A stretch of 64,000 nt of DNA from Hormiphora californensis. Taxonomy: Eukaryota > Animalia > Ctenophora. The notes beneath the pieces are model-generated. The model had not been told where the DNA came from. It saw nothing but the letters and a program-made list of their open reading frames with translations, and ran no database searches. Made by a program: the position numbers and the translations under genes. Positions 8,038-49,090 of the stretch are shown piece by piece (positions within the stretch are counted from its first letter, which is position 1; every line of letters starts with the position of its first letter). The DNA lies in NCBI GenBank assembly GCA_020137815.1, contig CM035352.1, forward strand, positions 2,356,001 to 2,420,000, given 5' to 3'.

Positions 8038-11000
8038 ATGACAGAGTTTCTGTTTCTATGGTTACTCCAGTACTTCCTTCCCTTCTCTCTAATCACACTA
8101 ATCCTGGTGTTGGAACCTCACAACAGAGAGATATACACAATAACCGCCCTACTGTTTGCCTTTCTTGGCAATATCGACCAAACAGATATCGCCCTGGTGG
8201 CGTGTGGGGTTGCATTCATCTGTCTGAACCAGGTTAGCGGTAAATGTTAGGGCGTTCTGATACATGTAATTTGCACGTGAGCTGATATAACCACTCCTAC
8301 TATTGCCGTTAAGCTATAATTTAGAGGCTCGAAACCAGGCTCTAAACCAGTGAACCAGGTCTATGATTTGGTAATTTAACCCAACTCAACTCAGCCCTAA
8401 TACAACATCTGCCAGGTGTACCAACCAAAGAGGGAGATCCAGCAAGTTCTATTAGTTGTGGTGTTTCTGAGGTATCTCTATTCACTGAGGACCCCGGCAC
8501 ATCTCTCAGCGTCAATGACGATCATCTTCACATCAATATACCTGAACTACTCAAAGCGAATGTCAGGTATGTAGCAGGAACCGACCGAATCAGGAAATAC
8601 TGGTCCCTGATTGGCTGATAACCAGTCGCGTGACCTAAATAACGAGTTCTGATTGGTTGTTTACTTGTTTCGGTCGAATGTCAGGTATTATATACATATA
8701 TGTAGAACTATGTAGAACTATAGATTTTACAGAACTTGGCCAAGAAATTTGAGGTCCCATATCTCCCTTCCCCTATTAGTAGGGTCGGTTGTGGGAAGTT
8801 GGGTCTGAAATTTTAAATTTGACTTGCTGATATGGTTAGGGACTCTATAAAAAGTCCAAAGTACCATCCCACAGGTCTCTACCACCCCCGGTTCACTAAT
8901 TAGCCGTAATTATGTGATTTATGACGTTATCGCCAATTAGCACTAATAATACCAGTTCCTGGTCACTTAGAGCTTAGATTTTGATACCAGCTGATAGAGG
9001 ATCACTAAATTAGTGGGCATTCAAAATTTTAGGTCGATCGGAGTTATGGTCGAGGAGTTATAACCGTTTTTCCGTTTGGCTGGCGGTTGTCTGGCACCAC
9101 GTGGGATCACGGGTTTAGGTCGTCGTGGGAGGTCGTCATTGGTCGCGTTCGATCGGGCTCGATGAGGTGATCAAAACTTAGTGGGGCCAGACCTTGGCCC
9201 CACCCCGTTCTTGGGTTATTGGGCTTTTTCGGTTTCCCGCCAAAATATTTTCCCGCCAAAACCGAAAAAGCCTAATAACCCAAGAACGGGGTGGGGCCAA
9301 GGTCTGGCCCCACTAGGTTATGATCACCTCATCGAGCCCGATCGAACGCGACCAATGACGACCTCCCACGACGACCTAAACCCGTGATCCCACGTGGTGC
9401 CAGACAACCGCCAGCCAAACGGAAAAACGGTTATAACTCCTCGACCATAACTCCGATCGACCTAAAATTTTGAATGCCCACTAATCTAGTGATCCTCTAT
9501 CAGCTGGTATCAAAATCTAAGCTCTAAGTGACCAGGAACTGGTATTATTAGTGCTAATTGGCGATAACGTCATAAATCACATAATTACGGCTAATTATTG
9601 AACCGGGGGTGGTAGAGACCTGTGGGATGGTACTTTGGACTTTTTATAGAGTCCCTAACCATATCAGCAAGTCAAATTTAAAATTTCAGACCCAACTTCC
9701 CACAACCGACCCTACTATATATCTCCTAGCTGTAACTCGCGGTTTCTGTTCCTAACAAGAAATAGCATTAGGGGTTCATGCTTTTAGTAGAGCTGGGTGC
9801 ACTTTGATCTACTGAACCCTCACAGAGGGCTCACAAGGTGCACCAGCCATGTAATGAGTTGTTGAGTGAAGGATGGGTGAATAGCTCCCCATCCTAGGAG
9901 GGTGAGATTCATTTGAATTAACCCACTTTACATGGGCTTCGGGAACTTTCACATGACAAAGCGCCTGGTCATGCTATACTAGAAGGGCATAGAACAAATG
10001 CATCATTTATTTAGTTTTACTAACAGTTTTTCACCTCGTCCTATACCCAGGAATAATGCATCATTAATTTAGTTTTACTAAAAGTTTTTCACCTCGTCCC
10101 ACTCCCAGGAATGAGGGTATATGTTTCTCGGAAAGTTTCAATGTTACCAGCCCGTATCTTCTCCTTCCTGTGCTCCTACTATCTCCTAGCAGCGTGTGCT
10201 CTGGTGTACGTCCTGGCATTCAACACCCTTCTCTCTGCCCCAAACCCTGGAAGTGAAGGAGCCTATAACAGGACACTAAACCACAAAGAGGAATTCATTG
10301 TTATCCTTCATAGTGTATTCCGGTTCATTTCCCGGCACCGGGTCCTGATTTTCCTGAGTATGGGCTGTCTAGCTGCCCGGCATGTGTTCCTGTTGGTGTG
10401 GGTGAAAACCCACAATGGGTATATTGAGTCGGTAGTGCCTGGGCCCCGGGGATGGCCAATTTTCGGGAATACTCTCCAGGCTGTGCCCATTAAACCATCA
10501 GGGCTGAGGAAGTTCCATGGCTGGTCTACCGAGTTTCCTGTTATGTTCAAGTAAGAAAAGTGCATGAGAGCTAATTGGATGATTCGATTATAACCTGATT
10601 GTTTGACTCTGATGATAGACCTAAACTAAATAGATCTCGATGTACTGGAAACACATCAAGATTTGAAAAGATTCCCAACAGCTGATATTTGATCCTCTCA
10701 ATCAATGGTATGAACTTGTCCACACCACGTGCCTCTCTAACAACTCCTGCATGTATGATTTGATCATGGAGGATGTGTCTCTCCGCTTCCTGCTGTATCT
10801 CTAATTCCTCTACATTTGAAGGTACATGGTGTCCTCTTTTATCTCTACATATTCATTATCAGGTACATGGTGTCCTCTTTTATCCCGATTGTCTATGTTC
10901 ACCACCCAGTGCCACTTAGAGAACTCCTAACTCTGAACCTACCGAAGGAACGGAAATATGTTTATAGGTTCCTTGAGGCTTTTACAGGTGAGACGTTATT

Positions 11001-14000
11001 ATATTCCTGCATTTGGTAGAGCATGTTTACAGTTTAGTATAAAACTGACAAGAGAAATAAAGAGATATTGAGTACCTTTGCTTATAAAGGGATTTCTGGT
11101 AAAGCGCTCGATTGTGAAAGCATGAAACTTGAGTAAACAATTATTAAATCTTGTATTACTTTGAGATATTGAGTACTATTTTTCGGTAGGGGAAGGCCTG
11201 ATAGTAGCCAGTCAGCCGAAATGGGGCAAGAGGCGGAAGCTTCTTGGCCGGGCATTTCACCGGAAATCAGTTGACATGTTCGTTGAGAAGATTGGGAGAT
11301 GCTGTGAGACCTTTGTGGGACGGTTATTAGAGTCACAGGGGGAGGTGGTGAATGCAGCACATTATTGTGAGGTCCTTACTCTGGATATCTTACTCAAGTG
11401 AGTTAATTCTTGATTATTCTTTGGAGTGAGTAATATTTATAGTTGAGGAGCATCCAGCTTTGTTTCAAATCTTGAAACTGAGCTGCAAGCGACAAGCAAT
11501 TCTACCGACTACAGCTATTTACCTGCACTGCAGGTGTACATTTTGCCTAGATGACAGCTGGCAGGACAACAAAGCGATATCTAGATTTGTGGAGGTGGTC
11601 GCCATGTGTGTTCACCACGTGACAACACGCATCTACAACCCTCTATACTTTCTTGATGCCATCTATTTTAGGTGAGAGCAAAGATATTCTTTCTCTTCGG
11701 GCATGTGGTTGGACGAACCAGGAAATACTGGTCCCTGATTGGCTGATAACCAGTCACGTGACCTAAATAACGAGTTGTGATTGGTTGTTTACTTGTTTCG
11801 GTCGGTTCCTGCTTTTTTATGTGGTTCGACGAACCTATAGTTCGCGGTGTAAACCACTCGCATAGGATATAAATCCTGTTTGGCATACTGCAGCTATCTT
11901 TGAAAGATTCTTTCTTCTTCTTCTTTTTCCTCAGCTTCGTTTATTGTTGTCCGCGATATCTCCGGCTCTTTGGTAATTCATGAATGAATGGCTCCATTCT
12001 ATGCTAGGAGCAGCTGCACTAAATTGTATCACCACTAGAACATACCCGCTCCAACAAGTCTGAATTCAATTATGTAGGAGGCATAGTGTTAGACGGGATT
12101 TGGGCACATCGCGCCCCTGGCCTCTGTGTGCAGCGAAAGACGGGACTAATGGCAATGGGAAATAACTTTGTAATATTTTCAATATATATAATATCATTTC
12201 CCACATATGTTATCTTATATTCTCTCGTCCTATACATCTACTAGATCTTCCCTTCTCCTAAAAGAATATGCATGGAGTTGAGACGATATACATCATACCT
12301 ACCCCACCCCCACCCCTTTGTCTACAGCTCCTGCTGCTGCAGTAGAATGATAATCTAAACAAGCTCGGTAGACAATGGTGTGAATATATCGACTGAATCC
12401 TATACACAGCTTCTAACCCTGGCCCGATCCTATACACAGCTTCTATAACCCTGGCCCGATCCGGCCGCCAGACAGCTGTACTTCCAACCCAATATGAATC
12501 GCTGTCAGAGAATTGGTCTGACCATATTCTCATTTCTCTAGAACAGAGCATAGACATTACAGACGTGTTTTCACCCGATCATGGTAGCCCAATCCTATTC
12601 CAATTCTGCAGGACACCTGCGGGCAGGGAGTTCAGGAAGCTAGTGAAGGAAGCCCAGCAGTTTACTACTGACATCATAGAACTATCTCGTGTAAGTATCC
12701 GAATGAGTGTGTTATGAATCATTGAGTAATTACTGTCCACACTGACAAAGTAAATGATGATGTCGGTTTGTCTTGTTCGCTATTTATTTACCTTATTCAA
12801 TAACAATGAGTAATGTTCAATGACGTTTTCATTGGGAGTCACACAGCTGAATGCCCTACAGAAAAGAAGCCAGGCGGATGGAACTAACAATGACATTGTG
12901 TCACAAGTGTATGAAGAGATGGGAGTATCAGACGAGATCAGTGTAGAAGACTTGGCTAGTGAAGTTACCACTCTACTATTTGCTGGTAATCATGGAATCA
13001 CTTTGTTTCAGCTGGTTCTTACAAGATTCAGTGAAATACCATTCAATGACTACTCACCATCATCTCTCTCTACTCCCCTGCAGGACATGATACATCTGCG
13101 CATGGGGTCACGTTTGCCCTGGCACTCCTCTCACAGCACAAGTATTGCTGGAGAAAGTGCAAAGAGGAGGTTATGGCATTCAAAGGTAAGTCATAATTTA
13201 TGGGGGGGGGGGGTTCATTAGCGGTGAGAGTACGTCGAAAAATTTAAATGTGCGTTGATTAGCTGTAGGGCACTTGGAGAGAGTTGTTCGACTTTCGTTA
13301 TTGCTCATTCTGGTGATTTGGTTGGGTAGGCAAGTCGAGATCGAGTTGCCCCTGTTGTAATTGTCTATCTGCTGCCGTACACTATCATAATGGGGAACAG
13401 AGCTAACAACTTATAAAATGTAAGCCACTCAAGTTATACGCTCCATTTCTCCACGCATAATTAGCAGATCTCTACCAGATAATTGGTCCGATATATTGAA
13501 TTTGACGCACATCACCGGGAATCGCCACCCTGAATGTGACATGTGTTGTGACTTGTGAGTGGTACAATTCCTTTTTATGTTTTTAGTGCGGACGATCCAG
13601 TAACTCCAGATTAATCAAGAAGGTCTTGAATAACATGTTTCTAACTACTAACTACATAGACTCTGAATCCATTAAAAAAAATCCCATAAACGTTTACTGG
13701 ATATGTCCGTTTGTTTTTCTCCGTTTACTTCCTCCACCGTGTGTGGCTTCGCAATTATATACCCCTCTCATATCACGGCGATATATAATTTGACCATGTT
13801 TGATACAAGATAGAATTGAAAGGACTTGTCAAACTGTTTTCCTGATAGCGTACTAAACGCTGTTCTTCCTAAAGATTCATTTATCGATTTAATGCCTTTA
13901 TTTTATCAATATATTCCTTGTCGAGATTCCCATTCGCTTCCAGTGTTATTCTAAAACACCAACTTCCTAAAGATCACACATAATGTTGGGGATTGTTTCT

Positions 14001-35693: not shown

Positions 35694-36109
35694 GGGAGGG
35701 GGAGACGTGTTAGACAAGATAAGAATATTGACTGAGAATGAGAAGTTTGTCTAAATGAAGTCTATGGAAGAGTTAACGATTTCTTAGAAAAAAGAATGGG
35801 ACACCATGAATGGAAGTCTCTTTTTACCTAGAAAGTGGAATAATAAATGAATTTTTTTTGGAAAGTTGGAAAATTTAAGTTCTTCCATGACCATGGAAGA
35901 AGCATGGGCAATGGGCATGCAACTCTGATAATATAATTGTCAAAAAAGCTGTAGCCCTTCCCATGTCTAAATTAGACTCTAATCTCTCACAGCTAACTCT
36001 ACCCCGTTACAACTCCCACATTGTCCTACTTCTTATCGATTTTGTTTGATTATCTGAGCTCCTGACCTGCACCGTTTGTAACGGTGATTTTTGTACACAC
36101 TCTGCTTTG

Positions 36110-37075
36110 ATGGAGAAGCACAGCAATGCTTTCACACAGTGGTGTGAGAGTAATGGACTGACAGATGAAGCATGTCCCTCAGCGAGTGTGATGAAGGCAG
36201 TAGAGTGTCTGCTAAATGATGCTGCGTGCCAGAGCCACGGTAACAATTTTGATTCATCAAGAGTTACTGCAGCTAAACTCAACACGAAGAATAAGCCTGA
36301 GTTGATAAATATGATCCAGAATTATGCTTGGTTTTGTCACATGGTGGTCCTGCCATATGTTGTGGAAGTGGACGCTAAGTTGTTCAAAGATACGACACAA
36401 AAGCTGGAGGAAACAGAGAACAAGCTGGAAGAGGTCACAGGGAAGATCAACTCCATGCAAGAGACCGTTATTAAGTCTCAGGAAGCGTTGTTATCTTGTC
36501 AAGAGACGGTGATAACTCTCCAGGGCTCTCTCCTCTCTGAGAAGAGCAAGAAGATTGAAGAGACGATGTCTTCTGTCAAAGAAGAACTGAAGGGCTATGC
36601 AGCAGTTGTGAAGAAGAGCTGCACTGCCTCGCTTGCTCCTAGGAAGCTACAAGCAGCCATGGTGAAGGCGTCCAGTGTGGAGGACAGGTCCAGCAACCTG
36701 ATTTTCTACGGGTTGGAGGAGTCTGTTGGAGAGGAGAAGACTGAGGATGTTGTTCTGAATGTTTTGGAACACACAAACGAGAAGCCGAAACTGGTAAGCT
36801 GTAGGAGGCTTGGCGAGAAGAAGGAAGGGAAGAAGCGGCCTGTCAAGGTGGTACTTCACAACCGAGATATGGTACGCTCCATTCTGGCAAGGTCTGGGAT
36901 GCTGAGGGAAGTGGAGGGAATGGAAGATGTTTACATTTGTCCAGATAGGACTGTTGAAGAGAGAAGTGAGAGAAAGAGACTCGTTTCTAAGTTGAAGCAG
37001 CAGAGAGAGACTGAGCCACACGTTAAGTGGGGTATTGTGAGAGGTAGTGTGATTAGAAGAGATGAGAAAAAATGA
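36110..37075 (+). CDS. Intact solo LINE-ORF1-like protein (coiled coil plus RRM/Transposase_22-like), with no ORF2 following
   Basis: Heptad region followed by DRSSNLIFYGLEE, RRLG...RPVKVVL and VYICPDRTVEER, which is the typical CR1/L2/L1-type ORF1 C-terminal pattern. Confidence 0.75.
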   Translation: MEKHSNAFTQWCESNGLTDEACPSASVMKAVECLLNDAACQSHGNNFDSSRVTAAKLNTKNKPELINMIQNYAWFCHMVVLPYVVEVDAKLFKDTTQKLEETENKLEEVTGKINSMQETVIKSQEALLSCQETVITLQGSLLSEKSKKIEETMSSVKEELKGYAAVVKKSCTASLAPRKLQAAMVKASSVEDRSSNLIFYGLEESVGEEKTEDVVLNVLEHTNEKPKLVSCRRLGEKKEGKKRPVKVVLHNRDMVRSILARSGMLREVEGMEDVYICPDRTVEERSERKRLVSKLKQQRETEPHVKWGIVRGSVIRRDEKK

Positions 37076-40513: not shown

Positions 40514-42222
40514 GTAACTTACTGCTAGGCATGGCTACGGCAGTGGCAAGTTCCAGCCAGTCATTAACATAACTATCAAAGTTAAGATCGTCACACCACG
40601 ATACCAGTTCTTCCATCTCTTCTTCAGTTAAATCCTTCTCCTGCTGCTTTCCCTCCCGGTACATGGCTGCGATGGTAGAAATAGGGTAGAGATAGGGTAC
40701 AGATAGTAGAGAAATAGGGTAGAAATAGGGTAGAATAGGTATTTGAGGTTCAGAAGAAAGGCTTTTTTTCAAAAACACTTACTTGCCATCCATTGCCGTT
40801 TCTTTTCCCGCCTCTTTGCCTCTATATCTTTCTGTCTACGGAGGCGTGAATAATGAAAGAATTTCCTCTCTGAGCTGGACTCCTGGATTAAGGTATCAGT
40901 GTCGTTGGCTGTGAAGATCCTGTCGGATACGAGTCTCCAACCATTGTTTTCCTCTCTCTGGTACCACCGGGCAAGATCTGGGAAGGAGAGAGGGTGAGAA
41001 TCTTGATGAGAAAATTAATAAAAAAGAGTAGGTTGAACAAATCGTAGTAAACCCTTTGCTAATGATCTCTCACTTCTCAGTTATCTTTGAGGAGTAATGT
41101 CCTTTCCAAGCAAACCCCAACTACTTACTAACTACTTACTCAGTTGGTTTGGTAGTTCTCGCGGTGGTGGGAGAGAGTTTGTTTCAGACATTGAAAAACA
41201 AGGAAAAACAAAGAATTCTTTGTTTTTCCTTGTTTTTCAATGTCTGAAACAAACTCTCTCCCACCACCGCGAGAACTACCAAATCAACTGAATTGTACCG
41301 CGGGCGGAGTTGCCTCAACTACTTACTAACTACTTACTAACTACTTACTAGCTACTTACTAACTACAGTCGGACCCCGATTTACCGGGATGCTCGGGGGA
41401 AAGGATTTTGCCCGGTAAATCGGGGTGCCCGGTATATCGGGGTCAAATCCCATTAATTTCCTATATCGGGGGAAATTTATCCTCCCGGTAAATCGGGGTT
41501 CCGGTAAATCGGGGCCCGGTAAATCGGGGTCCGACTGTACTTACTAACTACGTACCCTCCTTTCCAGGCTGGGTTGGGTAAGTTGTTGTTGCGAATTGTG
41601 GCGTTGGCAATGGCACAATTTGGTACTGTGTAGTCCCGTGGGGCAAAGGCGTTGATATCCGTAACTGGCCGGTAGGTGAAGATTTTGTAGTAAATATTGG
41701 GAGGAAACTTCTCCTGAAACACGTGTGGAGCTGTGTTAAACAAATTTCAAATGAATAATAAATGTGCGAGAAATCAGGAAACGATCAAGGGCTCGACTTC
41801 TATTGAAAAGCACGATGATATCACAAATGTCTAAAACAGTTTAACCTACCCCAGCAAGTCGGAAACGGATGTGAATTCCAGAAGCGAAATCAAGAAGGTC
41901 TCCCTCCTTGGGATTAATACATTTGAGCATTAGTTTGGGATTTCCCTTGGAGTAAAACTTGATCAAGTCGCGGTAGTAATGATACACTTGAACGTCCTGG
42001 AAACAGGATTAAGTTGGTCAGTAAAGTTAGTTAACTAATTAGTTGATTAGATTACCAGTAAGTTTTAAAAAGATCATTCTGCAATTGGTTTCAAAAGCGA
42101 CATTAGGGTAGTAAAGGCTGAAGAAATGAACCTACTATATGCCGCCTCCACGCTCTCTGAATGATGCTAGCAGCCCGATTTCTTGTCATACCAGTCCCAG
42201 TCGATGACTGTTCTGTCTCCAT
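40083..42222 (-). CDS. MFI: MFI / C11orf65 homolog, 6 exons
   Basis: METEQ...AASIIQRAWRRHI, MLKCINPKEGDLLD..SGIHIRFRLAG, FPPNIYYKIFTYRP, WYQREENNGWRLVS, ELVSWCDDLNFDSYVNDWLELAT; GT-AG borders. Confidence 0.8.
40420..40513. repeat. (AGAC)n microsatellite
   Basis: Directly visible. Confidence 0.95.
41140..41291. repeat. 152-bp near-perfect spacerless palindrome centred on GAATTC, flanked by (CTACTTACTAA)n
   Basis: TCAGTTGGTTTGGTAGTTCTCGCGG...CCGCGAGAACTACCAAATCAACTGA. Confidence 0.9.
41366..41537. mobile_element. Tc1/mariner (pogo-like) MITE family B
   Basis: TA|CAGTCGGACCCCGATTTACCGGG ... CCCGGTAAATCGGGGTCCGACTG|TA, with internal CCGGTAAATCGGGG repeats. Confidence 0.9.
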
Positions 42223-42653
42223 CGTGTATAAACGCTGGGAATATGATATATGAACATTGAACAATATCAACAATATCAACTAAACATAACGTCACTATAA
42301 CATAGCTCCCTAAATTTAAAATCTCTTCATTTGCAACTTGCTTACATTTCTTCCAGCTCGTTTTTTGTACCACCAATGTTCAATGTACCGTGCACAAAAC
42401 TCCTCAAAGCTACAAACAGGGAAGATATGAGACGATCATAGCAACAACAAATGGTATAATCAACGAAAAAAATAAGCAAACATAATTTAACTAGGATGTA
42501 AAACAATTATATTACAGGCTACTGCTGCAGCAGCTGTATTACTGTTGCCAGGGGAGATGGGAATCTGATATAGGACGTTGCTAGGGGTAACGTTGTAATT
42601 TGATATGCGGATGATATGGTGACATAATTCTACCAAAACTGAATATTTAGGTG

Positions 42654-42695
42654 GTTTCAAACTTTTCAACACTACTTTAAACAAATTAATTTGAG
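42654..42695 (+). other. Spliced-leader (SL) exon sequence, ctenophore type
   Basis: GTTTCAAACTTTTCAACACTACTTTAAACAAATTAATTTGAG matches the Pleurobrachia/Hormiphora trans-spliced leader as I recall it. It ends in the TTTGAG typical of SL exons. Needs database confirmation. Confidence 0.8.
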
Positions 42696-42909
42696 GTTTC
42701 GTTTTTCCCAATTCGCTAAGTTCTTTGGTATTTATTCGGCTCTTTATACTTTTTTGTTTTGTCTTTTCTGGGTTTATCAGAGACTGGTAACAGTTTCTGT
42801 GTGAGAAAGACAAGGCCAAAGACAAGAGAAGACCGGATCTTACCCGGAGGATTGACACTCGTTGTCGTTAGGCGAGGCCTTGAATTTATCCTGCAGATCG
42901 TAGCTAGTG

Positions 42910-44124
42910 ATGACATTGAAGGCAATCCCGCTAAAGTTATGGACGAGGAAAGAGTTGGACACGTTTATGAAAGATAATCTACCTGTGGATATGGACCCAA
43001 TCTTGCAAGGTAAAAAAGCTCCCCCAGCGGGTATCACTAAAGATATTCTATGGAATTTTGCTATTAACCTATTGAGAATGGTGGACAAGCAGCAGGATGA
43101 CCGTGTGAAGACCAAGTCAGAAGAAGGAACAGTAGTGGGACAGGATAGGTCTGAACAGGTTCTCAAGGAGCTTGAGGCGATGCGGGAGTGTTTTGCAAAC
43201 ATACCAGACATGATACAGAAGGCGATAAACGGCAAGGAGAAGACTGATGATGCTGGAAAGTTGCTCAACCCCAGCCCTAAGAAGACACCACAGAAGCACA
43301 CCCTCAAACTTGAGAAAGTTGGACTGGAAAAGTGGAAAGTTGTAAAGGCGAAGGTACGAAAGACTCTGCAGTCAATCCCAGTTGATGGAACCAGCTCGAA
43401 TGAAGAGGACACCAATCTAGTTTTCAAGGACAAGTCTCAACGAGACAAAGCTGAGGAACTGCTGAAATCTGAATTTGATACGTCAACAGCCACTCTGACC
43501 ACCAAGAAGCTTAATCCCAAAGTCACAATCTCAGACATTGCTGGAGAAATTACCACTGCTGAGGAAGTATACAGTGAAATACTGAGGAAGAATGAGGAAA
43601 TCAAAGAGCAGGTTGAAAGTCACCAAGAGGAACTGAAAGTCATCTTTCTTCATAAGGAGGATCGATATGCAGTTGTCCAGATGTCAAAAAAGATACGGGA
43701 GATTGTTCGCAAAAGGAATAACCGAATTAACCTTGATTTTCAAATCCACATTGTGAAGGATCGATTCCATATCGTTCAATGTTTCAAGTGTCAACGCTAT
43801 GGTCACAAGTCAGACTCAGTGATGTGCCCCAGGAGAGACAGCGGTGATCCAGTTTGTACCTACTGTGCTGGAAATCATCGGTACAAGGATTGTCAAGTGA
43901 AGAAAGATAGAAAAGTTGACTCCAGATGCTGTGCAAACTGCAAGAGTAGCCGAAGCAAGATCGATCAGCTCAATGCAACCACCCACACAGCGAACAGTTT
44001 CCAGTGTCCCTTCTTTATCATGGAGAAGGAGAGATTGATGAGTAGAACAGCCGGAGCTGAGATGTTAAAAAACGAGTACAGTCGGAAGGCACGAGACTTC
44101 TTGGAAAGAAGGAGAACTCACTAA
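42910..44124 (+). CDS. LINE ORF1, gag-like nucleic-acid-binding protein
   Basis: Intact 404-aa ORF with QCFKCQRYGH..C, CTYCAGNH...C and CANC...H....C zinc knuckles. Confidence 0.9.
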   Translation: MTLKAIPLKLWTRKELDTFMKDNLPVDMDPILQGKKAPPAGITKDILWNFAINLLRMVDKQQDDRVKTKSEEGTVVGQDRSEQVLKELEAMRECFANIPDMIQKAINGKEKTDDAGKLLNPSPKKTPQKHTLKLEKVGLEKWKVVKAKVRKTLQSIPVDGTSSNEEDTNLVFKDKSQRDKAEELLKSEFDTSTATLTTKKLNPKVTISDIAGEITTAEEVYSEILRKNEEIKEQVESHQEELKVIFLHKEDRYAVVQMSKKIREIVRKRNNRINLDFQIHIVKDRFHIVQCFKCQRYGHKSDSVMCPRRDSGDPVCTYCAGNHRYKDCQVKKDRKVDSRCCANCKSSRSKIDQLNATTHTANSFQCPFFIMEKERLMSRTAGAEMLKNEYSRKARDFLERRRTH

Positions 44125-47100
44125 GAGTTGGAACATTGAACTGCAACTCCCTTGTCAATAAGACTGCTGGTGTACTGGAACACCTTGAGGACCAGCTTGT
44201 TGATATTTGTCTTCTTCAAGAGACCTACCTGAGGAAAGGTGACAATGCTAAGCATCATGAGATAAAGGAAAGAGGATGGGAAATACACTCGGCACCGAGG
44301 AAGCAGAGGATTGGTGGTGGAGTAGCAGTGGTATACAGAGCGGACCTGGGTGTTAAATCTGGACCTACCAAGTGTTTCAAGACCTTTGAGTGTACAGAGA
44401 CTACTGTTGGAAATGCTAGTGAGATGTACCGGCTAGTAAACATCTATAGGCCACCGTACTCGAAGAAGGCACCTCATACCCAGAGCCACTTCCTGATGAA
44501 TTCAAGGGATATCTTGAGGAACTAAACTGTAAAGGTCGGGACAACCATTAATCATGGGAGACTTCAACTTTCACATGGAAAGGCCTGATGAATTTTATCC
44601 AAAAAAAACTACAGGAGATGATCGAGGAGTTTGACTTCAAACAGATGGTTCCATTGGTTTTCAACCCACAGACATGGAAGGTACTCTGGACCTAGCCCTG
44701 ATGGATGCTACTGTAGCAGATTGTCTTGAACCAGTTAGGGTCTTAGAGGAGGGAACTACTACTTCAGACCACCATCTTATTACAGTGGACCTACAACTGA
44801 CTACGAGGATTAGTAAGAGGAAACGGCCGGAGACTATTTGGTATCGGGGACTTTTCGAAGGTGGATGTGGAGAGTTTTAATGAGGATCTCAAAGCCAGTG
44901 GACTGTTTACCTCACTTGCTGAGGAAGAGGATGTTAATAGCCTTGTTGAGAAGTTATATGGAACGTTGCTAGCCCTGGTTGATAAGCACTGTCCAATGAA
45001 GAAGAGAAGGAAGAAAGAGAAGTATACACCATGGATGGATGAAGAGCTGCTAACCCTCCGGAGGAAGAAGCGGCGTGCTGAGAGGAAGTGGAGAAAGGAC
45101 AAGACTAAAGAGAAGCCGCAGCTAAGGGCCATGTATGTGGAACTAAGGTCAGCTTTCAACAAGATGGAGGTCAGAAAACGATCAGAATACACCAGAAGAA
45201 ATATTGAACTCTGTGGACGCGATCAAAAGAGGCTCAACCAACAACTGAGCAAGCTACTGGGTAACTCCAATGTTATCCTCCCAGATGTGGTCAACCCGGA
45301 GAAACTAGCGACTGAGTTTGGAGAGTTTTTCAAGTCCAAGATTGATAAACTACAGAAGAAGATTGGTGTCAAGATTGAAGAGTTGGGTGAAAAGAAATCA
45401 ACTGAGTCCGGTGCTATTGAAGGAGAGACAGAAAGATTTGAGACGTTCAGTCTTATGACTGAAGATGAAGTGGCAAGCCTTGTAAAGAGCCTGCCGGATA
45501 AGTTCTGTGACTTGGACCCAATCCCGACCTCTCTGCTGAAGCAACTTCTCCCTACACTACTACCAATGCTTACCAAGATCGTAAACACTTCTCTGCAGAG
45601 TGGTGTATTCCCGTCAGGACTGAAAGAGGCTATTGTGAGGCCCACGATCAAGATACATCTGGAGATGTTGACTCTCTTGCGAACTACAGACCAGTCTCGA
45701 ATCTCAGTGTTCTGTCCAAGCTAGCGGAGAAAGCTGTCAATGTACAGCTAAAATGAGCATTTGGAGAAAAACGACCTGCGAGGTGACTGCCAATCTGGTT
45801 TTCGCCCCAACCACCAGCTGTGAGACACACATGGTGCGAGTTGTTGATGATGTCCCTTGGGGAAATGGACAGAGGAAATGTGGTGGCAGTCGTTCAAATT
45901 GATCTTTCGGCTGCATTTGATACCATCGATCACCCTCAGCTATTGATGAGACTGGAGAAGCGTTTGGAATTAGATCAACGGTACTCGAATGGTTCACTAG
46001 TTATCTCAATGACAGGAGCTATAAAGTTAAAATTGGAGATGCCCTCTCACCTAGGCTCTTTCTCAAATATGGAGTACCCCAAGGCTCTCTCCTTGGTCCT
46101 GTCCTCTTTGCCCTATATGTGGAACCACTAGAACCTATTGTAAAGAAGTATGGACTCACAATACGACTTTATGCAGACGATAGCACAATATACATCGGAT
46201 TCTGCCCGGTGGAAGGCTGGACAGGTTCAAAGGAGATTATTGAGAAATGTTTGGAGGAGGTAAGAACGTGGATGATTGAAAACAGACTGATGGTTAATGA
46301 GGATAAAACTGAGTTTCTTATCCTGGGAAAGAAGAAGAAGATGGATACTGTACGTGAGGAGAGTGACCTGACACTTGAGCTAAATGGGACATCATTTCCC
46401 CCATGGACATGGCTGGAAAATCGGGAAAGACCCTTGGTATCTATCTTGATGAACAAATGGATATGAAAACGTCAAATCTCCATGGTCAAGAGGAATGCGG
46501 AGTTACAATGAGGAACCTCTGGCAGATCCGCCGATTCATTGATAAACCTCTACGTCTGATGCTTGCCTCCCAGCTGGTCATATCCAAGTGGACTATTGCG
46601 AATGCCCTGTATTTCAACCTGCCGGCCTCTACCATCAAGCCGCTGAAAAGGACTAATGAATCAAGTAATAAGATACATCCATGGAGTCAGAGAGAGGAAA
46701 GTTGATCTGGACCCCTTCTAACCGTGATTCCCATATCCTTACGATTGAGAAGAGGGATTTTCTTCAAATCTGTTTACTAGGGTACAAGATCTATTATGGA
46801 AGTGCCCCTCAGTACCTTCAGGATCTAGTGGAACATGATGAAAATACAGCAGTGCAAAAGTCTACTCGTCAGAGCTGTAAAGTAGAACCATTACAAGTTA
46901 AAGCTACCTTCTGGAAATGTGAAAGTGAGCAAACTGGGAAAAAGGAGAATATCCCAATATCTCCCCCATGTCTGGAACAACCTACCGGAGAACCTTAGAG
47001 ACGCACCTTCAGAGGACTCCTTCCGTATTCGCCTGAAGACCTACCTGTTCGATGCTACTGTTACCTTCTCTGAAAGACCTTATTTGGTTTTTCGACGTCA

Positions 47101-47185
47101 GTCGTTAATAATTTCTTTTCGGTTATTCATTAGTCCCCGTTTCTCACAACGGTCACCCCTGCTGCTGTCACATATTTCTTTATAA
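44061..47185 (+). pseudogene. LINE ORF2 (AP endonuclease plus reverse transcriptase), multiply frameshifted
   Basis: LNCNSL, LQET, GGGVAV, IYRPP, GDFN, TLDL, SDH (APE); DPIP, NYRPVS, DLSAAFDTIDH, GVPQGSLLGP, YADD, KTEF, LKTYLF (RT and C-terminus), spread over several frames. Confidence 0.9.
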
Positions 47186-47554
47186 TCTAAGATACTTTTC
47201 AGTTTATCATTTTGTTATTATTTTTTCTGATTATAACTTGTCACCCACAGTCACCAAGTGGTGAGAGTTAATAAAGTCTACTATATATGTCAGTTATAAG
47301 TCACCATATGAGTTACCATTTAAGACCTTTTGTCAACCAATATGTCAAGATAGGATGAGAGAACCGCTATGAATGGCAACTGCTCTTCGAACCAATCGAG
47401 AGTACTTGTCTATTTAGCCGGTATATAAATCCATTTTGTTGTTGTTGTTGTTGTTGGTTCACAACATGATAAATTTCACTGAATATGACAATGTACACGA
47501 AACAACGACTAAAAGATGTAGGTGTGAGAGTTTTAGCGTGCAATCTGTACACAC

Positions 47555-47591
<37 letters not shown>

Positions 47592-47699
47592 TGAAAAGGA
47601 GGAAGAGGTGGGATTGGAGCGAGCATATATGTAGATGCGATCGAGAATATATAGTATAAAACGACTGATCTCTAAATCGCTTCTCTCTTCTCTCTGCTT

Positions 47700-49090
47700 T
47701 CGCTTTTTACTGCTCCTCGCTTTTTTTGTTCTTTCCTCCTTTGTTTTTTTTTTTTTATTTCTTTCGTTTTTTCTTGAAGTGTGATACTTGCTTTTTCAGC
47801 CTCGTCTAACTCTACTTATGTAGACGGCCCTGGAATGAGCTAGATACTGTGAAGAGGGCTGGAAATACAACCAGCATTGAAGGGGGAGAATTTTTTCCAG
47901 ATCTCCAATATGCAAATTTTATACCAGGAACCGACCGAATCAATATACTGGTCCCTGATAACTGATTGGCTGATAACCAGTCACGTGACATAAATAACAA
48001 GTTTTGATTGGTTGTATACTTGTTTCGGTCGGTTCCTGTTATATACATGTAGGTAAACTGATAATACCTGATATTGTTTTCATCAGGTTCAGGGAGAAGG
48101 AGACGTTCTATCATGGAGAGCTTTCTGACCACCAGACAAGTTGCGAACTTGTCAACCTCTTCCGGAGATTTTGCCTTACCTGAAATATATAACGACATTA
48201 AATTATGGGAGATCAATGGTGCCAGCTGCCCAAGAAGAATGATTCAATTGCTGTTTCATAGTTATACCCATGTAGTGAGAGAGGTGAGGTGAATTAGCGA
48301 ATGATCGTTCTGTACAAGAAAAGCTGATTGGTGAACCTTGTTCAACGTAGTCCGTGTGTTTTCGCTCTAATCGTAACCTTGCCGGTGACTGCACGTGTGG
48401 AATTTTGAGTGGTTGAATTTTTGGTGAAATAATTGTGGATTACAGATGTGATAAGCTGTCGTGGTCCCGTTTAGTTTTGTAAGTTGTGTCTAACAGCGCC
48501 GCTTCTAGTCACATTACCGTAATGGAAATACAGTAATGAGACGCACGCTTTGCATAACACGCGGCAAAAAGTGCATGTGTTCAGCACGTACTAGCGCCCT
48601 GATTGGCCACGGTTGCGCGTCTTCATACTGTATTTCCGTTTTCCATTACCGTTTTCCCACTACAAGCGACCGGGTAAAGGGTAGTACAGAAAAACTTATC
48701 ATGCAGGAAGGTTAACTTACTATTGGTCGGTTTTCCTCTGCCTCCAACTTGGCCATCATTTCCTTTAATCTCTCGAATAGTTTCCTCCTGAAAGGAAACG
48801 ATGCTAATATAACAATACTAGAGTAGTTTCACCGGTCGCCTACTAAAATTACTCACAACTCACAAAGATCGAGCTTGTATACCTTGATCTGTAACCTCTA
48901 TATACACGTTGAATCTCAACAGCGGCAGCTCTTCTCTGCAGACCATCACTACTTGAACTCGATAAAATCTCGCGTCTTTCCTTTTTCGACTGAACTGCAA
49001 AATGAGTTGCCACGAGAATAAGAAGGAAGGCTCAAACAGACATTACATACCTGGAAACTGGATCTTGGCCAGTAGATCGGCAATGGACAT
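47700..49090 (-). CDS. Small multi-exon IQ-motif protein (3' end uncertain)
   Basis: Phase-compatible exons MSIADLLAKIQFP|VQSKKER...AAAVEIQRVYRGYRSR|RKLFERLKEMMAKLEAEENRPI; further exon near 48179-48067. Confidence 0.55.
47925..48038. mobile_element. MITE family A, complete copy (hAT-like)
   Basis: TIR CAGGAACCGACCGAA / TTCGGTCGGTTCCTG. Flanks TTTTATAC / TTATATAC match at 7 of 8, consistent with an 8-bp TSD. Confidence 0.85.

Follow-up and report, generated by a model that had tools for sequence, protein, structure and literature searches.

Structure of the LINE

The 64-kb stretch of Hormiphora californensis DNA analyzed here (the window) carries on its forward strand a 4.8 kb LINE at positions 42654–47456, near a gene that we take to be MFI, one exon piece of which had no Pfam match. 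The element opens with a 42 nt copy of the spliced-leader (SL) exon (42654–42695), followed by a 214 nt 5′ UTR (42696–42909), ORF1 (42910–44124), ORF2 (44061–47100), a predicted stem-loop (47363–47422) and a tail of seven TTG units (47436–47456). The 3′ boundary had been placed at 47290 in the initial annotation; the element runs to 47456, with depth remaining high until 47441 and then falling, and record 16 of run X2 reaching the tail.

The opening 60 nt of the 5′ UTR are 55% T, the first AG lies at +24, and an acceptor-like site that looks unused is located at 42779–42780. The UTR is 97–98% identical to those of a second genomic copy (L085) and of a contig from run X7. ORF1 is open, encodes 404 aa and ends in three zinc-knuckle-like Cys/His clusters; the match to zf-CCHC_6 is weak (E = 0.0096, under the cut-off), and the Cys/His residues are kept across four other SL-headed families. 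ORF2 encodes an APE endonuclease (PF03372, E = 1e-6) and a reverse transcriptase (RT; PF00078, E = 7e-16) in the window pieces searched, in agreement with the earlier identification of an APE-RT LINE. ORF2 is split across several reading frames in the window. These breaks may be assembly errors, since contigs of all four compared runs differ from the window by identical small indels and a relative, P0045, is an unbroken protein of 984 aa with 94% identity across the RT piece.

The stem-loop directly before the tail has a predicted energy of −22.4 kcal/mol (z = −4.9), and none of 200 shuffled sequences was equally stable. Stem-loops were also predicted at the matching position in families L042 (z = −2.5) and L064 (z = −3.1), both of which have tails of ATT repeats. 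An Rfam search of 42000–48000 gave nothing at the gathering score. The letters GTT at 42654–42656 are repeated directly after the tail (47457–47459), which is likely a 3 bp microhomology or target duplication. Record 18 of X5 matches the upstream flank of the window to 42656 and then departs with 100 letters; it is a putative empty site. No long target-site duplication was present among the 20 largest of at least 60 direct-repeat families.

Classification

Pfam searches with the window pieces, P0045 and families L039, L042 and L064 returned APE and RT domains only, with no RNase H. The tail-binding region of ORF2 (45029–45091) has the residues Pro, Trp(+1), Glu(+17) and Trp(+20) with exactly the published spacing (PMC4176376) in the window and L039, and with one additional residue in L042 and L064; this comparison was made against L2 elements. 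Judged by its domains, this motif and the combination of a 3′ stem-loop with short tandem repeats, common to three families, the window element is classified as an L2-type LINE. In a quick RT tree of 123 rows, nearly all of them unnamed, the window family (support 99) is placed apart from the group of L039, L042 and L064 (support 98); statements on the leader in this tree cover the rows of these SL-headed families, 119 rows being additional. The closest named protein to P0045 is a catfish hypothetical protein with 34% identity.

Spliced Leader at the 5′ End

Positions 42654–42695 are identical to nucleotides 3–44 of the published 44 nt leader of Hormiphora californensis (PMC8527503), which bears out the initial proposal that they represent the ctenophore spliced leader. 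The leader is matched only once in the 64-kb window with up to three mismatches allowed (0 matches in 100 shuffles), and no further ungapped match of at least 27 of 42 letters was found elsewhere in it. The distance to the ATG of ORF1 on the same strand is 214 nt, where about 215 nt had been stated, and the GT at 42696 and the AG ending at 42780 are likewise present as described. The sole AG of the 42 nt copy is formed by its final two letters.

Three DNA runs, which represent two organisms, have the leader joined to the UTR in unbranched, high-depth contigs, and the leader was not a criterion in finding them. In X1, one unbranched contig leads from about 42670 into the UTR at a depth of 754 (flank bins 65–71); the contig of X2 has a depth of 270 (flank bins 28–40) and reaches 43481, and that of X7, from the second organism, has a depth of 609. 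Contig depth is not copy number, and here it indicates a repeat. An assembly chimera with an mRNA was considered and is ruled out, because the DNA contigs span the junction. Among the loose ends listed before 42800, the only one is adapter sequence, and no non-leader extension ahead of 42696 was observed in X1, X2 or X7. L085 belongs to the window family (97% identity) and has 35 nt of the leader and an unrelated flank. The element, described earlier as sitting alone, belongs to an SL-headed family of several copies; the leader is a trait of this family, forms the very start of the element and moves with it.

The acceptor-like site at 42780 looks strong, yet no spliced copies were detected in the three runs. 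The contigs are unbroken over 42781 in X1, X2 and X7, neither a joint nor a leader-bearing loose end at 42781 is listed there, and no DNA copies spliced at 42780 were seen, which lends no support to the earlier suggestion of an 85 nt intron or fresh acceptor at this site.

Four Distant SL-Headed Families

Four more LINE families (L028, L039, L042 and L064) open with 40–43 exact leader letters, 16–19 of which in each family fall outside the 24 nt search pattern. Their ORF1 products are 30–37% identical to that of the window and their RTs 51% identical, while the opening 120 letters of their UTRs match the window at the level of shuffled sequences (0.54–0.56 vs. 0.52 ± 0.03). These families were retrieved with an exact leader pattern, which would pass over any family whose leader has decayed or is absent. 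Both ORFs are open in the leader-headed L042 and L064. The dinucleotide after the leader is TG, TG, TT and GT (the last in L064) in the four families and GT in the window family; hence, three of the five do not have GT.

In each of the five families, a short T/C-rich motif comes after the leader. The first AG downstream of the leader lies at +21 to +33 in all six LINE copies; in 111 other leader loci its median position is +8, and 19 of these reach +21 or have no AG within 60 nt. T-richness alone could explain the scarcity of early AGs. For another locus, L081, all Atlas matches were below 0.9.

Leader Loci and a Candidate SL RNA Gene

The leader stands on ordinary mRNAs, being at the contig end in 106 of the 121 loci collected, and 66 of the 81 loci scanned matched host protein families. 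None of the contigs with a terminal leader matched the ORFs of the window LINE, although 41 of the 121 loci extend only 300 nt past the match. No doubled or relic leader occurred across the 121 loci, a result that fits re-splicing at the last AG and equally the absence of re-splicing. The leader pattern gave no hits in viral and prokaryote collections, and window ORF1 was absent from viral contigs.

L087/L088 is a candidate SL RNA gene with a GTAAG donor, a tandem copy and a fold z of −2.2; Rfam returned nothing for it at the gathering score. The leader of the LINEs ends precisely where L087/L088 has its GTAAG donor, and neither the intron nor the upstream sequence of L087/L088 is found beside any LINE copy. 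In the window, GT follows the leader, but the 120 nt after the leader match L087 at 0.50 (shuffled, 0.52) and continue into the LINE. The Hormiphora genome contains 718 dispersed leader copies (PMC8527503), part of which SL-headed LINEs probably account for.

Origin of the Leader

An inserted RNA copy that has a 3′ tail and begins with the leader exon alone is built like an SL-tagged retrocopy, as the LINE is. Because only the exon is present, the leader was most likely gained by trans-splicing, and we are confident that LINE RNA acquired it in this way and was then reverse-transcribed. This was one of three models in the initial annotation and fits the data best. LINE RNA would receive the host leader by trans-splicing, reverse transcription of the leader-bearing RNA would proceed almost to the cap, ending a few letters short of it, and the new genomic copy would consist of flank, leader, UTR, ORF1, ORF2 and tail. 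The leader 5′ ends of the LINEs span 35–43 nt, with 1–9 letters of the published 44 missing, which is the pattern of incomplete reverse transcription; further erosion is seen in no family.

We lean, by a small degree, towards renewal of the leader in each round at its own last AG. In a transcript initiated upstream, this AG would act as the acceptor and a fresh capped leader would replace the old one; the same RNA would be rebuilt, with no UTR lost and the leader not doubled. In Hydra, about 30% of transposon long reads bear an SL (PMC12220107). It counts against renewal that the strong-looking site at 42780, which one might expect read-through transcripts to choose, yields no spliced copies, whereas most animals use GAG poorly as an acceptor. 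RNA from the 5′ end of the family was not seen either; 42682–42980 has no cover in the RNA run X18, which argues neither way. A wider reading is tentative and less likely than not: the LINE lineage may have abandoned its own promoter and cap, carrying the leader as a built-in acceptor, living on read-through transcription and being rebuilt by trans-splicing every generation, with many of the hundreds of dispersed ctenophore leader loci representing the heads of these elements.

Alternatively, trans-splicing might have supplied the leader in a single event or in rare ones, and the leader might now simply form the first 43 letters transcribed from an internal promoter, with selection or occasional re-splicing keeping it host-like. 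The family-wide occurrence of the leader, as in the permanent SL mimic proposed earlier, is borne out. In favor of a permanent head, all full-length copies seen have one fixed structure, the T/C-rich motif is present downstream of the leader in five families, a transcription start at the leader would explain the idle site at 42780, and relic leaders of dinoflagellates have been proposed as promoters (PMC5585692). However, an identical, exact leader heads five families whose UTRs match only at the shuffle level, and a head without renewal would be worn down by the loss of 1–9 of 44 letters, which makes permanence unlikely. Leader-headed copies could also be processed, inactive offspring of hidden sources in which a separate promoter, outron and acceptor precede the UTR, comparable to spliced L1 copies, which are typically dead on arrival (PMC11838501). 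An ORF1-like gene at 36050–37075, kin of the leader-headed L015/L071, lacks a leader and is preceded by an acceptor-like site. One source copy could be missed, as contigs drop rare variants and X5 is uncovered at 42682–42781; nevertheless, the contigs of X1, X2 and X7 are unbranched and free of such extensions, and both ORFs remain open in two leader-headed families, L042 and L064, so we consider this origin rather improbable.

In the third model of the initial annotation, the LINE inserted at the exon end of a dispersed SL gene; this could happen through targeting, as in SLACS, CRE and NeSL, or by chance. The model would account for the GT that comes next to the leader in L064 and in the family of the window, and could draw on the many leader copies reported in the genome (PMC8527503). 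It is rejected as highly improbable, because the flanks of the candidate SL RNA gene differ: its upstream sequence and intron accompany no LINE copy, and flanks vary between copies. In addition, three families have TG, TG and TT in place of GT, the X5 allele departs at 42656, the start of the leader rather than its end, and, with 718 copies in 110 Mb, a leader end would fall by chance in the 250 nt ahead of any particular ATG with a probability of about 0.0008.

These elements bear on the standing question of how LINEs preserve a functional 5′ end across rounds of truncation, to which internal promoters and ribozymes are known answers; a leader serving as both tag and own acceptor would be a third one, tied to host trans-splicing. 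Genomic leader copies in ctenophores can be re-read accordingly, part of the 718 in Hormiphora likely being retroelement heads or retrocopies and not SL genes. As the leader shows where each element truly begins, it aids in dating copies and tracing the evolution of the host leader. Long reads already available for ctenophores would allow a direct test of renewal.

Comparison with Known Systems

SLACS, CRE and CZAR are non-LTR elements with a restriction-like endonuclease that insert in SL genes. NeSL likewise adjoins SL sequence, possesses a restriction-like endonuclease and inserts in SL genes (PMC4640811). In contrast, the APE domain is found in the window, P0045, L039, L042 and L064, the window LINE has dispersed flanks, which differ between copies, and it lies in no SL gene context, the flank and intron of L087/L088 being unshared. 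The L2 elements ZfL2-1, ZfL2-2 and UnaL2 (PMC4176376, PMC4245944) share with it an APE-RT ORF2, equal spacing of the tail-binding motif, a 3′ stem-loop with a short repeat tail and a short target duplication or microhomology. A leader head is not among the features described for them in these sources, and the three Cys/His clusters of ORF1 also set the window LINE apart.

Retroelement RNA can gain an SL in Hydra (PMC12220107) and in Cer1 of C. elegans (PMC3315495), where this is known at the RNA level only and the full-length 8 kb Cer1 RNA is not trans-spliced; unlike in Hormiphora, genomic leader-headed families do not figure in what these reports describe. Among host genes, a similar process operates in dinoflagellates, in which RNA is retroposed together with the spliced leader that it carries and is expressed anew; tandem relics arise there when an internal AG serves for splicing once more (PMC12014239, PMC5585692). 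Here, the leader is borne by an autonomous element, its AG is terminal only, and relics are absent from all 121 loci. Slamovits and Keeling (2008) are also cited on the SL-relic retrogenes of dinoflagellates.

It had been suggested that nothing similar is known, a view weakened by parasitic flatworms, for which the integration of trans-spliced retrotransposon RNA has been suggested at 597 loci (Calvelo et al. 2025, PMC12582326). The partial-leader loci of flatworms are likewise leader copies devoid of SL RNA gene features that adjoin LTR/LINE repeats; they appear as a filtering remark, within 500 bp of a repeat, in a text describing neither the anatomy of the elements nor a mechanism (PMC12582326). 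A search of the literature on leader-headed ctenophore LINEs found none in searchable full text, with Repbase, Dfam and most subscription papers beyond reach. The prior art consists of the flatworm side remark, the SL on Hydra transposon reads and the dinoflagellate retrogenes. By comparison with the flatworm loci, five defined LINE families in ctenophore-type DNA each begin with a fixed, almost complete leader.

Anatomy of the leader-headed LINE

The head of the LINE (42654–42695) is identical, with no mismatch in direct comparison, to nucleotides 3–44 of the published 44 nt spliced leader (SL) of Hormiphora californensis (PMC8527503), which confirms its reading as the ctenophore trans-spliced leader in the initial annotation. 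It is the single leader match in the window, and none was found in 100 shuffles. According to the available part of the same paper, 56% of long cDNA reads carry the leader, which also occurs 718 times in the genome; no statement on the nature of these genomic copies was found there.

The leader is followed by a 214 nt UTR, an open 404 aa ORF1 (42910–44124, forward strand) and an APE-RT ORF2 (44061–47100, forward strand) spread over several frames. The ORF2 breaks may be assembly errors, since they coincide with small indels common to all four runs compared and a 984 aa relative (P0045) is unbroken. The 3′ end lies at 47456, after seven TTG units preceded by a stem-loop (z −4.9); read depth is high up to 47441, and the end point of 47290 proposed earlier is thus superseded. 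Separately, a short MITE-like element with 24 nt inverted ends and very high depth occurs at 47920–48043 and near 8575–8676 and 11714–11811, and is also present in the 3′ parts of several host transcripts.

The leader as part of the element

We aligned contigs from four DNA runs (organism A) to 41800–48300, and contigs from runs X1, X5 and X7 (the last from organism B) and from one RNA run to 42682–42980, with no selection for the leader. In run X2, one 812 nt contig of depth 270 begins inside the leader at 42670 and extends into ORF1 (flank bins 28–40). A single X1 contig (depth 754; flank bins 65–71) covers 42682–42793 plus 12 letters further upstream, and a single X7 contig (depth 609) extends across all of 42682–42980 plus 13 upstream letters, with six substitutions and one gap. 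These depths are not copy numbers, rare variants are dropped from contigs, X5 has no cover at 42682–42781, and the RNA run gave none across 42682–42980. The sole loose end listed before 42800 was an adapter. The leader is a real, family-wide part of the element.

In X5, a 597 nt contig matches the upstream flank as far as 42656, where it departs with 100 letters. GTT stands at the leader start and again after the tail, so that an empty site would leave at exactly 42656, and we infer that this contig represents one.

At 42695, 20–23 contigs per run depart directly after the leader with mixed sequence whose majority start is CT and not GT, so that many genomic leader copies stand in front of other sequences, perhaps retrocopies or members of further families. 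An X2 contig departs later, at 42705, after 10 shared UTR letters. Organisms A and B have about 98% identity in the 5′ region of the element (42682–42980 against X7 and locus L085), while flank alleles inside organism A differ by several percent; this may reflect horizontal transfer in the recent past or slow change.

Leader-bearing loci in metagenome contigs

A search of 59 of 64 parts of the metagenome contigs with the last 24 letters of the leader gave at least 121 loci (about 130 estimated). The leader stands at the contig end in 106 of the 121 and is preceded by other letters in 15. Ordinary host families were matched by 66 of 81 loci (Pfam; 85 of 131 ORFs computed), which confirms the sequence as an mRNA leader.

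All five loci of one assembly, which belong to the 15 with an internal leader, are LINE heads. L085 belongs to the window LINE's family (97% identical) and carries 35 nt of the leader and an unrelated flank. The other four (L028, L039, L042 and L064) represent different families, found by the exact leader pattern; their matches are 40, 41, 42 and 43 letters long and are followed by TG, TT, TG and GT. Two of them, L042 (about 5.1 kb) and L064 (about 4.9 kb), are complete; in each, ORF1 and ORF2 are open and the tail consists of ATT units. Against the window LINE, ORF1 of these families is 30–35% identical and the RT piece 51%, and the first 120 UTR letters score 0.54–0.56 (shuffles, 0.52 ± 0.03). 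A YAG lies 1–14 letters upstream of the ORF1 ATG in each family (window, 42894; L028, L039, L042, L064), and no DNA copy spliced there was among those listed in the alignment to 42682–42980.

L015:1–1041, L071:54–1150 and the unclassified leader locus L081 form a second group of leader-headed sequences. L015 (leader at the contig end) and its relative L071 (leader internal) have a short motif of the UTR in common, and each encodes an ORF1-like protein with a coiled coil; the Atlas neighbours of these proteins are ctenophore clusters without names. Directly after the leader, L071 and L081 carry an acceptor-like TTTTAG or TTTCAG. An intronless 341-codon frame of the window (36050–37075, forward strand) is 28–38% identical to the L015 and L071 proteins and has an acceptor-like site upstream, near 35992; neither an ORF2 match downstream nor a leader upstream was found, and the frame is possibly a stand-alone or domesticated ORF1. 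Six further internal-leader loci resemble transcripts in which stray letters precede the leader, itself full or partial (Pfam match in four of the five scanned).

Origin of the leader head

Two copies on one contig (L087 and L088), 778 nt apart, contain the leader followed by GTAAG and have 281 nt of upstream sequence in common. This tandem repeat, with a unit of about 778 nt, is a candidate for the SL RNA gene of a ctenophore; an Rfam search gave no match to it. Because the match of both copies to the leader begins only at position 2 (A), the G that opens the published 44-mer may stem from the cap or from an adapter.

The leader part of the LINEs ends precisely where this candidate gene has its splice donor, and the subsequent sequence varies by family. 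The junction therefore appears to be a splicing product, and the LINE copies very probably derive from leader-bearing RNA reverse-transcribed to near the cap. Insertion at the exon end of a dispersed SL gene, one of the models proposed initially, was rejected and is extremely unlikely, as neither the upstream sequence nor the intron of L087/L088 is present in any LINE copy compared. Template switching onto the complete SL RNA is likewise unlikely, as it would be expected to carry the intron along.

Proposed renewal of the leader

The 42 nt genomic leader contains one AG only, which is terminal. A read-through transcript trans-spliced at this AG would rebuild an identical RNA, and such renewal, proposed from the sequence, is on balance the favoured reading. 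It predicts that unrelated UTRs carry a leader identical to that of the host, that the leader does not erode although copies measure 35–43 nt, that tandem relics are absent and that few competing AGs lie just downstream. All four predictions are observed, and none is decisive. Tandem leader relics occur in 0 of 121 loci; the first AG downstream of the leader lies at +21 to +33 in all six LINE copies; the median for the 111 other loci is +8, and 19 of these have it at +21 or beyond, or lack one within 60 nt.

Several points count against renewal at the leader's own AG. In most animals GAG serves only poorly as an acceptor, and the distant families were themselves picked by an exact leader. The better-looking acceptor-like site at 42780, initially thought to permit re-capping in each cycle, did not bear this out, as no DNA copy spliced there occurs in X1, X2 or X7, a lack that the read-through model must explain. 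A permanent leader head with an internal promoter is a rather unlikely alternative, and the origin of these copies as dead ends from hidden source elements is improbable.

Comparison with known systems

The idea is already in print, as a remark on flatworms: at 597 loci, partial leaders lie close to LTR and LINE repeats, and these "may be" trans-spliced RNA of retrotransposons that became integrated (PMC12582326). In Hydra, the leader is found on about 30% of transposon long reads (PMC12220107), and in dinoflagellates host genes recycle and retain leader relics (PMC12014239, PMC5585692). A search of the full-text literature (excluding repeat databases, the Hormiphora supplements and Derelle et al. 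2010) found no published description of defined ctenophore LINE families headed by the leader, and none of a LINE renewed through the last AG of the leader as acceptor.

The window LINE falls outside the NeSL/SLACS/CRE group, whose members target SL genes (PMC4640811). By its features alone, it works like an L2-clade LINE: it has APE and RT only, a tail-binding motif with the spacing of PMC4176376, a 3′ stem-loop followed by a tail of short repeats, and at the junction a short match of the kind described for ZfL2 (PMC4245944).
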